DNA of 64,000 nt from Escherichia coli (lineage in GTDB: Bacteria; Pseudomonadota; Gammaproteobacteria; Enterobacterales; Enterobacteriaceae): the NCBI RefSeq assembly GCF_003334385.1, contig NZ_QOWN01000011.1; one strand, given 5' to 3'. Position 1 is the first letter of the stretch. Each line of letters begins with the position of its first letter. Position numbers and translations under genes: made by a program. The notes under the pieces are model-generated. The model searched no databases. It worked only from the letters and a program-made list of their open reading frames with translations, and was not told the origin of the DNA. Shown piece by piece: positions 22,262 to 48,417 of the stretch.

Positions 22262-22353
22262 AAAATATGTAGGCATGATAAGACGCGCCAGCGTCGCATC
22301 AGGCATCGAGAGCCAAATGCCAGATGCGGCGTGAACGCCTTATCTGGCCTACG
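22262..22353. repeat. REP element pair between convergent ybaL and gsk
   Basis: gcctgatgcgacgctggcgcgtcttatcatgcctaca and gccagatgcggcgtgaacgccttatctggcctacg palindromic units. Confidence 0.85.
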
Positions 22354-29772: not shown

Positions 29773-31704
29773 TCAAATGGGGCGGATACTTTCTTCATCC
29801 AGCTCCGCATCGAAGAACCGACGCAGGGTCTGAATATTATTATCCGCAATAATGGACTCGCGCGCCTGCGCAAGTTTTTCTTCGTATATCGCCTGACGCC
29901 ACTCCAGCGGCGTACGCACCGCGGGATTATCATCTTCAACGATAGTCAGTTCAACCGTTGAACCTTTTAACATGCTCAACGCTTCAGCCAGTTTTTGCTG
30001 TGCACCGCGGTTGTTCAAATGCCGCTGAGAGGAGCGCAAATGCAGACATACTGCGTTGTCGCTCTCCTCTTTCCAGGCATTTAACGCCACCTGTTCGACC
30101 AGTTTTGGTAGCGAAAGTTGGCTCACCTGTGCCGCCCACGGGTCGCGCTCAATGGCTTCTGCCGCTAGCTTCGCCGCCAGTTCCGGCGTTTTTTCATGTT
30201 CCAGCGCTTTTTTCAGCGCCTTCGGCGTGGCGACCACTTCTTTTTGCTGCATCACCGGAGTGGTCGCCTTCCAGCGATACGCTTCTTTTTTGGCTGGCGC
30301 TTTTTCCAGCGCCGATGGCACCGGACGCGCCTGAACGCGATCGGTGACCGAAGCCAGTCTTTCCAGCGCAGCGTTATTCACCGGCCGCGCGCGGGTAGCG
30401 GCTGCCGGTTCACTCTTTTTTGCTTTGGTTGCTCCCTGCACGCGCTGCAACTGCTGGCGCGCCGCCAGCACCTGGCTGGTGGTTTCCGGGAGCGGTACAG
30501 TCGGTGCCTGCTGCGGCGCTGATTGCGGTTGCGGCGGCACCTGGGTTGGCGTCATTACTGCCGTTGGCGCGACGGGTGCAAAGGACTGTCGTGGCACTTC
30601 TGGCTCAGGCAGCGGCATACGCGGATGGAATGCCAGCGCGCGCAGCAGCGTCATCTCAACGCCCATGCGACGGTCCGGCGCATACGGTAATTCTTTGCGA
30701 CCAATCAACAGCGTCTGATAGTAAAGCTGAATATCCGTCGGCGGTATGGTGCGCGCCAGTTCACGCATCCGCAGCTCGATGGCGGCCATGTCGTTGCCAA
30801 GTGCAGCAGGCGAAAGTTGTACCATCGCAATACGATGCAACAGGCCGAGCATTTCCACCAGCAACGCTTCCCACTCGATACCACGGGCAGCGGCTTCATT
30901 AATCAGCGCCATTACGCGCTCGCCGTTGGCCTCGACCATCGCTTCAACCAGCGACAGCGCCTGATCGTCGTCAAGCGTACCCAGCATCGCACTGACCGCC
31001 TGGGTTGAAACCTGGCCGTCACCGCTGGCAATCGCCTGGTCGGTCAGACTTAAGGCATCTCGCAGGCTGCCTTCAGCGGCGCGTGCCAGCAATTGCAGCG
31101 CCCGCGGCTCGTGAGCGATATGTTCTTCGTTGAGGATGTGCTCAAGCTGATGGCGAATTTGCTCGACATCCAGCGCCTTGAGATGAAATTGCAGACAGCG
31201 TGACAAAATCGTCACCGGCAATTTCTGTGGATCGGTCGTCGCCAGCAGAAACTTAACGTGCTCCGGCGGCTCTTCAAGGGTTTTTAACAGTGCGTTAAAG
31301 CTGTGGCGCGACAGCATATGCACTTCGTCGATCAGATAAACTTTGAAACGACCACGCGCCGGAGCGTACTGGACGTTATCCAGCAGGTCGCGGGTATCTT
31401 CAACTTTGGTGCGCGAGGCGGCGTCGATTTCAATCAGATCGACAAAGCGCCCCTGCTCGATTTCACGACAGTTATCGCACACGCCGCACGGCGTCGCGGT
31501 AATGCCGGTTTCGCAGTTTAGCCCCTTCGCCAGCAGTCGGGCGATAGAGGTTTTTCCGACGCCACGGGTGCCGGAAAAAAGATAAGCATGATGAATACGC
31601 CCTAACGACAAGCCGTTCGCCAGTGCGGTCAGCACATGTTCCTGGCCGACGACGTCAGCAAAGGTTTGTGGGCGCCATTTTCGGGCTAAGACCTGATAAC
31701 TCAT
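29773..31704 (-). CDS. dnaX: DNA polymerase III tau subunit (gamma produced by frameshift), 643 aa
   Basis: AAA+ clamp-loader motifs (GTRGVGKTS P-loop, SRC motif) plus tau-specific C-terminal domains. Confidence 0.96.
   Translation of the reverse strand: MSYQVLARKWRPQTFADVVGQEHVLTALANGLSLGRIHHAYLFSGTRGVGKTSIARLLAKGLNCETGITATPCGVCDNCREIEQGRFVDLIEIDAASRTKVEDTRDLLDNVQYAPARGRFKVYLIDEVHMLSRHSFNALLKTLEEPPEHVKFLLATTDPQKLPVTILSRCLQFHLKALDVEQIRHQLEHILNEEHIAHEPRALQLLARAAEGSLRDALSLTDQAIASGDGQVSTQAVSAMLGTLDDDQALSLVEAMVEANGERVMALINEAAARGIEWEALLVEMLGLLHRIAMVQLSPAALGNDMAAIELRMRELARTIPPTDIQLYYQTLLIGRKELPYAPDRRMGVEMTLLRALAFHPRMPLPEPEVPRQSFAPVAPTAVMTPTQVPPQPQSAPQQAPTVPLPETTSQVLAARQQLQRVQGATKAKKSEPAAATRARPVNNAALERLASVTDRVQARPVPSALEKAPAKKEAYRWKATTPVMQQKEVVATPKALKKALEHEKTPELAAKLAAEAIERDPWAAQVSQLSLPKLVEQVALNAWKEESDNAVCLHLRSSQRHLNNRGAQQKLAEALSMLKGSTVELTIVEDDNPAVRTPLEWRQAIYEEKLAQARESIIADNNIQTLRRFFDAELDEESIRPI
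30410..30421 (-). other. dnaX: dnaX programmed -1 frameshift site (A AAA AAG, then GAG TGA in -1 frame) producing the gamma subunit
   Basis: Plus strand shows CTTTTTT at 30415-30421, the reverse complement of AAAAAAG; on the mRNA the -1 frame reads AAA AAA GAG TGA; a GC-rich stem-loop (CCGGCAGCCGC…GCGGCCGG) follows. Confidence 0.85.
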
Positions 31705-45172: not shown

Positions 45173-46729
45173 ATGCTGGTGAGAACACGACATCTGGTCG
45201 GCCTTATTTCGGGAGTACTGATTCTTTCAGTATTGCTGCCTGTCGGCTTAAGCATCTGGCTGGCCCATCAGCAGGTAGAAACATCGTTTATTGAAGAGCT
45301 GGATACCTATTCCTCCCGCGTCGCTATTCGAGCCAATAAGGTGGCGACACAAGGGAAAGATGCGCTGCAGGAGCTGGAAAGATGGCAAGGCGCTGCCTGT
45401 AGCGAAGCCCATCTCATGGAAATGCGTCGGGTATCTTACAGTTATCGCTATATTCAGGAAGTGGCTTATATCGATAACAACGTTCCCCAGTGTTCGTCTC
45501 TGGAGCATGAAAGTCCGCCCGATACCTTCCCCGAGCCAGGTAAAATTTCGAAAGATGGTTATCGTGTCTGGTTAACATCGCATAACGATTTAGGCATTAT
45601 CCGTTACATGGTCGCCATGGGAACGGCACATTATGTCGTCATGATCGACCCCGCTTCCTTTATTGATGTCATTCCCTATAGCTCATGGCAAATTGATGCC
45701 GCCATTATTGGCAATGCCCATAACGTTGTCATAACCAGCAGCGATGAAATTGCTCAGGGAATTATTACCAGGCTACAAAAAACACCCGGTGAGCATATCG
45801 AAAATAATGGAATCATTTACGATATCCTGCCCTTACCGGAGATGAATATTTCGATCATCACATGGGCTTCAACGAAAATGTTGCAGAAAGGCTGGCATCG
45901 GCAAGTCTTTATTTGGTTACCGCTCGGGTTGGTGATTGGCCTGCTGGCAGCGATGTTTGTGCTGCGTATTTTGCGCCGTATTCAGTCACCGCATCATCGG
46001 CTGCAGGATGCTATCGAAAATCGTGATATTTGCGTGCACTATCAGCCGATTGTCTCCTTAGCCAATGGCAAAATTGTCGGTGCTGAGGCACTGGCGCGCT
46101 GGCCGCAGACAGACGGTAGTTGGTTGTCACCAGATAGTTTTATTCCGCTGGCACAGCAAACGGGCCTTTCTGAGCCATTGACGCTACTGATTATAAGAAG
46201 CGTCTTTGAAGATATGGGCGACTGGCTGCGTCAGCATCCACAGCAGCATATTTCGATCAATCTTGAATCCCCCGTGCTCACCTCGGAAAAAATCCCGCAA
46301 TTGCTGCGTGACATGATCAATCACTATCAGGTTAATCCCAGACAGATCGCGCTTGAACTCACTGAACGCGAGTTTGCCGATCCGAAAACCAGCGCCCCGA
46401 TAATTTCTCGCTACCGGGAGGCGGGCCATGAAATTTATCTTGATGATTTTGGTACGGGGTATTCAAGTTTAAGTTATTTACAGGATCTGGATGTCGACAT
46501 TCTGAAGCTCGATAAATCTTTCGTTGATGCGCTGGAATATAAAAATGTCACGCCGCATATCATCGAAATGGCAAAAACACTGAAACTGAAAATGGTAGCG
46601 GAGGGAATCGAAACCAGTAAACAAGAAGAGTGGTTACGCCAGCATGGCGTGCACTACGGTCAGGGCTGGCTCTACAGCAAGGCATTACCGAAAGAAGATT
46701 TCTTACGCTGGGCCGAGCAACATTTGTGA
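45173..46729 (+). CDS. pdeB: c-di-GMP phosphodiesterase (N-terminal TM/periplasmic sensor region + EAL domain)
   Basis: EAL-domain C-terminus (…QPIVSL…EALARW…DDFGTGYSSLSYL…); true start may be the GTG at 45179 rather than ATG 45173. Confidence 0.88.
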   Translation: MLVRTRHLVGLISGVLILSVLLPVGLSIWLAHQQVETSFIEELDTYSSRVAIRANKVATQGKDALQELERWQGAACSEAHLMEMRRVSYSYRYIQEVAYIDNNVPQCSSLEHESPPDTFPEPGKISKDGYRVWLTSHNDLGIIRYMVAMGTAHYVVMIDPASFIDVIPYSSWQIDAAIIGNAHNVVITSSDEIAQGIITRLQKTPGEHIENNGIIYDILPLPEMNISIITWASTKMLQKGWHRQVFIWLPLGLVIGLLAAMFVLRILRRIQSPHHRLQDAIENRDICVHYQPIVSLANGKIVGAEALARWPQTDGSWLSPDSFIPLAQQTGLSEPLTLLIIRSVFEDMGDWLRQHPQQHISINLESPVLTSEKIPQLLRDMINHYQVNPRQIALELTEREFADPKTSAPIISRYREAGHEIYLDDFGTGYSSLSYLQDLDVDILKLDKSFVDALEYKNVTPHIIEMAKTLKLKMVAEGIETSKQEEWLRQHGVHYGQGWLYSKALPKEDFLRWAEQHL

Positions 46730-46770
46730 ATTTTTGGGCTGACGGCACGCCGCACAGCCCGTCACGCTAC

Positions 46771-47124
46771 CTATTCGTCGATGATTGACTCGAATCCGCC
46801 ATAGATCATTCGCTTGCCGTCAAACGGCATGGACTCGCCGAACTCTTTCATCCGTGGGTCCGACATCATCTTTTGATTAGCAGCGTCGCGGACCTCTTTT
46901 GAAGGGTATTCAATCCAGCTAAAGACAACCTCTTCATTCTCTTCCGCTTTCACCGCCATACGAAAATCGGTCACTTTGCCATCCGGTACATCGCTGGCCC
47001 AGCATTCGACAATACGAAGCGCGCCAAACTCTTTAAACAATGGCGCAGCCTTAGCGGCCATTTCCCGATAGGCATCCTTTTTATCGGCAGGAACGGCAAC
47101 CACAAAACCATCAACATACTTCAT
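46771..47124 (-). CDS. ybaA: DUF1428-family protein, 117 aa
   Basis: Recognised sequence MKYVDGFVVAVPADKKDAYREMAAKAAPLFKEFGA. Confidence 0.88.
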   Translation of the reverse strand: MKYVDGFVVAVPADKKDAYREMAAKAAPLFKEFGALRIVECWASDVPDGKVTDFRMAVKAEENEEVVFSWIEYPSKEVRDAANQKMMSDPRMKEFGESMPFDGKRMIYGGFESIIDE

Positions 47125-47234
47125 CAGACATACCTCCGAAGCGTACTGCGCAGCCAGACAATTCTTGCGACGTCAGTTGTGGTTAAAGTTTAGCCATGTT
47201 GGGATTTTTTGACGAAACGGTGGGAGGCAGAAAT

Positions 47235-47348
47235 GGGTGGGGGCCCTGCCAGCTACATCCCGGCACACGCGTCATCTGCCTTGGCTGCTTCCTTCCGGAC
47301 CTGACCTGGTAAACAGAGTAGCGTTGCGGGAGAACCAACAGAGCCCCC
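47235..47348 (-). ncRNA. ffs: 4.5S RNA (signal recognition particle RNA), 114 nt
   Basis: Minus strand reads GGGGGCTCTGTTGGTTCTCCCGCAACGCTACTCTGTTTACCAGGTCAGGTCCGGAAGGAAGCAGCCAAGGCAGATGACGCGTGTGCCGGGATGTAGCTGGCAGGGCCCCCACCC, the 4.5S RNA sequence including the conserved SRP domain IV GGAA tetraloop region. Confidence 0.93.
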
Positions 47349-47424
47349 ATTGAGAGCGTTGAGAACCAACGCGCAGGCGCATTATCACTGCTGCCCCGGC
47401 TAATTGCAACCCATCGCGTGCCAG

Positions 47425-47814
47425 ATGCTGGTTTCTTGCGCAATGCGACTTCACTCGGGCGTTTTTCCAGATTATGCTGAAAAATTACCTCAGGAAGAAA
47501 AGATGGAAAAAGAAGATTCATTTCCCCAACGCGTCTGGCAAATCGTCGCCGCTATTCCCGAAGGCTATGTCACCACTTACGGTGATGTGGCGAAACTGGC
47601 GGGATCGCCCCGCGCCGCGCGCCAGGTGGGCGGTGTGTTAAAGCGTCTCCCTGAAGGCAGCACCTTACCCTGGCACCGGGTGGTTAATCGCCACGGCACA
47701 ATTTCGCTAACCGGACCGGATTTACAGCGTCAGCGACAGGCATTACTGGCAGAAGGTGTGATGGTATCGGGAAGCGGGCAAATCGACTTGCAGCGTTATC
47801 GCTGGAACTACTAA
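47425..47814 (+). CDS. atl: Alkyltransferase-like protein (DNA alkylation damage sensor), 129 aa
   Basis: Start at MLVSCAMRLHSG… inside track ORF 47404..47814; MGMT-like DNA-binding fold lacking the catalytic cysteine context. Confidence 0.85.
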   Translation: MLVSCAMRLHSGVFPDYAEKLPQEEKMEKEDSFPQRVWQIVAAIPEGYVTTYGDVAKLAGSPRAARQVGGVLKRLPEGSTLPWHRVVNRHGTISLTGPDLQRQRQALLAEGVMVSGSGQIDLQRYRWNY

Positions 47815-47836
47815 CCCTCTCCGGGCGGAGAGGGTT
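47813..47836. terminator. Bidirectional hairpin between convergent atl and ybaY
   Basis: aaccctctcc-gggc-ggagagggtt perfect 10-bp stem overlapping the atl stop codon. Confidence 0.65.
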
Positions 47837-47844
47837 AACGTCGC

Positions 47845-48417
47845 TTAATATTGCGTAGGAGCTGGAACTGCCGAAGACGGATTCACCTGAGTTGGTGAAG
47901 TCGAAGGTACGGTAGTCGTTGCGCCACCGCTGGCCTGAACCGGCACGGCGGTTTGCTGTACCGGCACCAATGTCAGGTCGGCTTTAGTTCCGCCCTGGTT
48001 GATCACCGGCTGAACGGTATCGGTGATAAATACCAGTTTGTCATTCACGGTAATCGCCGCACTCAACAGAATACGCGCGTTCGGCTGAACATCTGCCGGG
48101 TTAAATGGCAGAACAAAGCTGAATGGTGACTGTTTACCTTCAGTACGCACCGCTTTCTGCGCCAGCACTTTTGACGGTGCATCGGCTAACGACGCGTCAG
48201 AAAGTGTCACGGTCAGCACAGCATCAGGCGGCAGTGCGACTTTCTGACGGATCCAGACGGTACCGGAGACATTCGGTTGCTGGATAGCTGGTTGTTGTGT
48301 TGCTGAAATAGACGTATTTGCAGCCGGTGCTGGCGTCTGAATATCCGCGCTTTTATCTGCGCAAGCCGCCAACGCAATCGCAACCGCTAAACCACTGGCC
48401 ATGTGCACGAGTTTCAT
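47845..48417 (-). CDS. ybaY: Outer-membrane lipoprotein of unknown function, 190 aa
   Basis: Lipoprotein signal MKLVHMASGLAVAIALAAC (lipobox LAAC). Confidence 0.9.
   Translation of the reverse strand: MKLVHMASGLAVAIALAACADKSADIQTPAPAANTSISATQQPAIQQPNVSGTVWIRQKVALPPDAVLTVTLSDASLADAPSKVLAQKAVRTEGKQSPFSFVLPFNPADVQPNARILLSAAITVNDKLVFITDTVQPVINQGGTKADLTLVPVQQTAVPVQASGGATTTVPSTSPTQVNPSSAVPAPTQY

Follow-up and report, generated by a model that had tools for sequence, protein, structure and literature searches.

Introduction

In Escherichia coli the signal recognition particle (SRP) consists of the 4.5S RNA and the protein Ffh, whose M domain holds the RNA with picomolar affinity (PMC4737761; PMC5499578). 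The RNA speeds both the assembly of Ffh with FtsY and GTPase activation, and in the 'early' state of this complex the NG domain of FtsY docks first at the RNA tetraloop (PMC4737761; PMC5499578). 4.5S RNA is essential, and 5′-extended forms of it still work (PMC5499578; PMC7049720). Its leader, for which lengths of 22 to 26 nt have been published (PMC5499578), is cleaved by RNase P (PMC5499578; PMC7049720), and RNase T leaves a 4-nt ACCC overhang at the other end (PMC3439924). RNA-seq puts most 5′ ends of the precursor (pre-4.5S RNA) at −26 and minor ones near −127 and −153, and promoters have been predicted at −26, −130 and −160 (PMC5499578).

The large bacterial SRP RNA, represented by the 271-nt scRNA of Bacillus subtilis, and the eukaryotic and archaeal 7S RNA have the helix 8/domain IV core GTCAGGNCCGGAAGGNAGCAGC in common with the E. 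coli molecule. These RNAs have in addition an Alu domain and further helices, and scRNA is processed by RNase III (PMC1935012); none of this applies to the E. coli RNA. SRP RNA genes have also entered the literature as integration sites: insertion into ffs, the gene for 4.5S RNA, was called novel for the Enterococcus phage phiEf11 in 2025 and has been predicted for Streptococcus pneumoniae (PMC12540744).

Here we analyse a 64-kb stretch of E. coli DNA (the window), in which an earlier reading of the sequence (the original prediction) had placed a 114-nt 4.5S RNA gene on the minus strand between ybaA and atl, underneath two open reading frames that it took to be spurious.

Results

The ybaA–atl gap contains the E. 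coli ffs gene

The gap lies where it had been placed. Its downstream border is ybaA, which encodes a DUF1428 protein at 46771..47124 on the minus strand (as an open reading frame and in RefSeq), 110 nt past the 3′ end of ffs. The divergent upstream neighbour on the plus strand is atl (ybaZ), for an alkyltransferase-like protein of the MGMT family; its open reading frame runs over 47425..47814, beginning at the ATG of an older 129-aa model, evidently the one behind the original prediction, and the RefSeq coding sequence covers 47503..47814. Within the gap, the reverse complement of 47235..47348 reads GGGGGCUCUGUUGGUUCUCCCGCAACGCUACUCUGUUUACCAGGUCAGGUCCGGAAGGAAGCAGCCAAGGCAGAUGACGCGUGUGCCGGGAUGUAGCUGGCAGGGCCCCCACCC, 114 nt in length. 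By sequence and by identity to K-12 this is mature 4.5S RNA, GGGGGCUCUG...CCCCCACCC, the ends of which are also read GGGGGCUCUG...GGGCCCCCACCC.

A scan of the whole window with Rfam 15 matched the Bacteria_small_SRP model (RF00169) at 47244..47340 on the minus strand, over model positions 1-97 of 97 and with 68.1 bits (gathering score 40; E = 5.5e-13 for the 64-kb window). A covariance-model score below threshold had been named as evidence that would speak against a 4.5S RNA; the score we obtained is 28 bits above it. A permissive local search (E ≤ 1, both strands of 47100..47520) returned the same match with an E-value of 3.6e-15 and no second RNA family, and the Rfam 15 scan revealed no second SRP match in the 64-kb window. 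The 22-nt domain IV motif GTCAGGNCCGGAAGGNAGCAGC likewise occurs once in the window, 0.00 occurrences being expected in shuffles. RefSeq gives its SRP_RNA feature the bounds of the shorter, 97-nt Rfam match, and the 114-nt limits of the original prediction are the published mature ends.

Over the 379 nt of the intergenic stretch, the window is 100% identical to E. coli K-12 MG1655 and to many other strains. In MG1655, RefSeq labels the equivalent of 47244..47340 'SRP_RNA ffs, signal recognition particle sRNA small type', in the company of ybaA (the DUF1428 protein), the gene for the MGMT-family protein (atl), ybaY, tesB, amtB and pdeB, and an SRP_RNA is annotated by RefSeq at ffs in essentially every complete E. 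coli genome. Comparing our locus with K-12 ffs, we found no difference: the 379-nt sequence, the neighbours (ybaA, atl, ybaY, tesB and pdeB), the fold and the promoter are the same.

A match to an SRP model could also mark a degenerate, non-functional copy of the RNA or an SRP RNA from elsewhere in the clan, for instance the large type with its Alu domain; other families of clan CL00003 did in fact give three overlapping matches at the locus, which were suppressed. These scored lower, however; the best-scoring clan member at the locus is the small-type model, aligned over its full length. Moreover, ffs is the sole copy per genome and identical to the functional K-12 gene, and its promoter is intact. 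The RNA has no Alu domain, nor would one fit between transcription start and 3′ end: the mature 5′ end follows the promoter at a distance of 26-33 nt, and both ends of the 114-nt RNA are closed by the hairpin. We consider a degenerate copy or a different clan member extremely improbable, and treat the locus below as an intact, small-type SRP RNA gene.

The 4.5S RNA hairpin is maintained by compensatory substitutions

The minimum free energy (MFE) structure of the 114-nt RNA is a single hairpin of 42 pairs, with −57 kcal/mol and a z-score of −3.15 relative to dinucleotide shuffles. Its tip, 47281..47311 on the minus strand, is domain IV (helix 8), the region of contact with the Ffh M domain and FtsY (PMC4737761). 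Coordinate checks placed the GGAA tetraloop, which is of the GNRA type, at 47293..47296, the 4×4 symmetric loop CAGG/AGCA at 47300..47303 and 47286..47289, and the 4×1 asymmetric loop ACCA/A at 47307..47310 and 47282, all on the minus strand.

As a test of the fold that does not depend on thermodynamics, we searched a single genome of each species for the domain IV motif, which yielded 120 loci from many phyla and a MAFFT alignment of 117 sequences; the core GTCAGGNCCGGAAGGNAGCAGC was found across Bacillota, Actinomycetota and Cyanobacteria and in a MAG of one DPANN archaeon. Part of this set was picked by the domain IV pattern, and invariance inside the 22-nt pattern therefore holds by construction; A39 of the asymmetric loop, which is invariant in the 117 sequences, and C41, which is conserved in at least 90% of them, both lie outside it. 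In RNAalifold, pairs around the tetraloop and the symmetric loop covary strongly (e.g. CG:48, UA:35, GC:20, AU:7), the recovered structure of this broad alignment comprising only the domain IV tip and one further segment of four pairs. Because the outer stems of distant phyla align poorly by sequence alone, the full hairpin was tested on the collinear gammaproteobacterial subset.

This subset contained ten homologues, from Aeromonas, Pseudomonas, Vibrio, Haemophilus, Thiobaca, Aliidiomarina, Methylophaga and three MAGs, each of which independently scored 53-79 bits on RF00169. When the E. coli structure was projected onto the 11 Gammaproteobacteria, 89.4% of the alignment cells were standard pairs, as compared with 33-51% when the 3′ partners were slid by 1-3 columns; the percentage paired is somewhat inflated by the structure having been taken from the E. 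coli row, an effect that does not bear in the same way on the counts of compensatory changes. Double-sided changes occurred in 25 of the 42 pairs, and none of 500 shuffles of this alignment matched the observed values. The single extended hairpin, comprising helices 5 and 8, is maintained by compensatory substitutions.

The gammaproteobacterial 4.5S RNAs (Aeromonas, Pseudomonas, Vibrio, Haemophilus and others) resemble the E. coli RNA in being collinear with it, about 114 nt long, folded as a single hairpin and above the RF00169 threshold, with a domain IV that is identical or nearly so. They differ from it in overall sequence (64-75% identity), with compensatory change at many stem positions. 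The domain IV fold, which had been proposed as a check on the assignment, is present in the MFE structure and backed by covariation in these independent homologues; together with the RF00169 match and the identity to K-12, it bears out the claim that 47235..47348 on the minus strand is the 4.5S RNA.

Promoter, leader and 3′ end of the ffs transcript

A σ70-type promoter is found at 47381..47409 on the minus strand, with a −35 hexamer TTGCAA (47404..47409) and a −10 hexamer GATAAT (47381..47386) separated by a 17-nt spacer; the hexamers and the spacer were verified. No other promoter-like site was detected in 46700..47900, a scan result that on its own is not significant (1 found versus 0.7 expected). 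The published start at −26 corresponds to the G at 47374, 7 nt downstream of the −10 hexamer, and the position of the promoter fits this start with the expected geometry. The pre-4.5S leader, 47349..47374 on the minus strand, which according to the literature is removed by RNase P (PMC5499578), contains a small hairpin, GCGUUGGUUCUCAACGC, that precedes the main helix in the predicted fold.

At the other end, the four nucleotides ACCC (47235..47238, minus strand) are unpaired in the MFE structure, and the overhang reported for RNase T (PMC3439924) agrees both with this tail and with the 3′ coordinate of the original prediction. Scanning 46700..47900, we found no canonical intrinsic terminator in the 110 nt between ffs and ybaA (47125..47234). 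The sole hit of the scan, 47357..47343, straddles the junction of leader and mature 5′ end, and one such hit compares with 1.4 expected. The initial 3′ end may come from termination at the GC-rich 4.5S helix and the ACCCAUUUCU (AUUUCU) stretch behind it, or the transcript might read through into ybaA, with partial co-transcription of the two genes. A literature search found no paper that names both ffs and ybaA.

On the atl side, two translation starts are in use, the ATG at 47425 (129 aa) and the ATG at 47503 (103 aa, RefSeq). The protein matches TIGR00589 of the ogt superfamily with 53.2 bits; because this methyltransferase-family match begins at residue 32 of the long form, homology does not discriminate between the two starts. 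The long form would start 16 bp from the −35 hexamer of ffs. Projected onto the window, the minor 5′ ends published for pre-4.5S RNA near −127 and −153 fall at ~47475 and ~47501, inside the 47425-47503 start region of atl.

Elsewhere in the window, Rfam matches above threshold were obtained for the programmed-frameshift element of dnaX (30376..30440, minus strand, 96.8 bits) and the sRNA sroB (16509..16592, minus strand, 82.1 bits), and for three elements of the naRNA4/REP type, which match on both strands (15033..15211 and 22272..22349). All of these are expected for a K-12-like region. No tRNA or tmRNA was detected when the window was scanned for them.

The overlapping open reading frames are chance frames

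Two minus-strand open reading frames overlie ffs, and the mechanical ORF list contains both at exactly the coordinates originally given: a 112-aa frame at 47183..47521, which extends over ffs, its promoter and the start of atl, and a 60-aa frame at 47272..47454, which extends over the 5′ part of ffs and the promoter. The statement that they run through the 114-nt RNA is correct for the 112-aa frame, which contains the RNA entirely; the 60-aa frame covers only 47272..47348, i.e. 77 of the 114 nt.

Could either frame encode a real protein, alone or overlapping the RNA gene? Both frames do exist, with ATG and GTG starts, and the exact 112-aa sequence has been deposited as a 'hypothetical protein' in several genomes, among them E. 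coli P12b (AFG39350.1), S88 (CAR01799.1) and O25b:H4, and Shigella dysenteriae. These deposits come from a few older annotations, however, and the cluster to which the sequence belongs has only nine members, whereas more than 5400 complete genomes contain the underlying DNA. RefSeq PGAP calls neither frame, and the exact 60-aa sequence is absent from a collection of 15 billion proteins. Neither product matched NCBIfam, and the 112-aa product, the one searched against Pfam, gave no match there even at E ≤ 10. In the homologues the reading frames are not kept open: the 112-aa frame meets stop codons inside the stretch equivalent to the RNA in 93 of 116 homologues, Aeromonas, Pseudomonas and Vibrio among them, and the 60-aa frame does so inside the 114-nt equivalent in 61 of the 116. 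Substitutions at the locus preserve base pairs instead, and a gene for the 112-aa protein would have to cross the ffs promoter and run antisense over the start of atl. On this evidence a genuine protein in either frame is hardly credible, and we regard both as frames that stand open by chance in GC-rich, structured RNA and in intergenic DNA. A dual-function gene giving rise to RNA and peptide was also considered and rejected, there being no conservation of the frame.

The warning in the original prediction that any protein call here would be an annotation error is supported by the lack of family matches and by the broken 112-aa frame; because the 112-aa frame has been deposited as a hypothetical protein, the error foreseen has already occurred. 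At 90% identity, the cluster of this protein also includes short partial entries labelled Staphylococcus aureus (from a 551-bp contig) and Klebsiella pneumoniae (from a 373-bp contig), which look like E. coli contamination.

Conservation of ffs across complete E. coli genomes

Of 5426 complete E. coli genomes, 5425 contain the 114-nt RNA at a single place, and in 5421 its identity is at least 99%. The 379-nt intergenic region is present in the same number of genomes (5425/5426), with 95-99% identity in 1355. Because the RNA reaches ≥ 99% identity in 5421 genomes, as against 95-99% for the whole intergenic region in 1355, the 4.5S RNA is under tighter constraint than the flanking intergenic DNA.

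A few records depart from this pattern. One of the 5426 genomes has no ffs match, two matches are on records labelled as plasmids, and identity falls below 99% in four genomes, including NZ_CP196708.1, in which the match of 117 nt implies a 3-nt insertion in the RNA. The genome without ffs, the matches on plasmid records and the copies below 99% may reflect errors of assembly or labelling, or else rare variants.

The 3′ end of ffs as an attachment site

The intergenic query was split in about 1% of the E. coli genomes. In strain GDSC2227PM (NZ_CP135595.1), ffs and ybaA are separated by an island of 8,502 bp, bordered on both sides by a perfect copy of the 22-bp direct repeat GAAATGGGTGGGGGCCCTGCCA (16619-16640 and 25121-25142 of L123). 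Besides a tyrosine integrase (PHROG 1, E = 5e-37), the island encodes a recombinase-family protein, a subunit of a type III restriction enzyme and others. In our window the same 22-bp core is present as an empty site at 47230..47251, made up of the last 17 nt of the 4.5S RNA and the 5 nt downstream. A junction of integrase and ffs was detected in 62 of the 5426 complete genomes, being at least 99% identical in eight and 90-95% identical in 52; at least two sequence variants of the junction exist, and ffs is annotated under the junction match in all 25 records listed.

We think it likely, if short of certain, that 47230..47251 is a live attB, here unoccupied, of a tyrosine-integrase island family whose target in E. 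coli is the SRP RNA gene, much as tRNA and tmRNA genes are the targets of other islands. As at those targets, the 3′ end of ffs is doubled as the 22-bp repeat and the gene is regenerated, here in ~1% of E. coli genomes. The elements at E. coli ffs are small islands (8.5 kb in our example), in contrast to phiEf11, a characterised phage whose attB lies in the ffs gene of Enterococcus faecalis (PMC12540744). Whereas phiEf11 alters the terminal 17 nt of ffs (PMC12540744), the island of GDSC2227PM leaves the 4.5S sequence unchanged, because its 22-bp repeats are identical. No description of integration into E. coli ffs was found in the literature that we searched, which is not proof of absence, and the TIGER/Islander paper makes no mention of SRP or 4.5S RNA; the ffs-targeting islands of E. 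coli may be undescribed, or only catalogued in databases.

Discussion

Because the full-length RF00169 match, the identity to K-12, the covarying fold, the geometry of the promoter and the ACCC overhang all agree, we identify 47235..47348 on the minus strand as ffs; none of our results speaks against this. All testable defining features of RF00169 were found, and beyond its membership of the family the locus is the already known gene itself. We put the probability at about 98% that this single-copy gene encodes 4.5S RNA, the RNA component of the E. coli SRP, that it is expressed and folded as described, and that the 112-aa and 60-aa frames are chance frames and not genes.

Expression, processing and Ffh binding of this copy are predicted from published work on an identical RNA. 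The promoter at 47409..47381 would give rise to a short transcript starting ~26 nt upstream of the mature 5′ end. RNase P would then take off the leader, and RNase T would trim the 3′ end to the four nucleotides ACCC. The mature 114-nt RNA forms one long hairpin that presents, at its domain IV tip, the GGAA tetraloop with the symmetric and asymmetric loops. The Ffh M domain would bind these loops (ffh itself lies outside the 64-kb window), and the tetraloop would bring in the receptor FtsY, leading to the early Ffh–FtsY complex.

Sequence, fold, promoter and neighbours are all as in E. coli K-12, and the locus adds no new biology of ffs. It is a textbook case for applying structured-RNA models before ORF calling, in that a 112-aa frame lying over an essential RNA gene has entered the protein databases. 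A mild by-product of the analysis concerns the species more widely: small integrase-bearing islands use the 3′ end of ffs as their integration site in ~1% of complete E. coli genomes.
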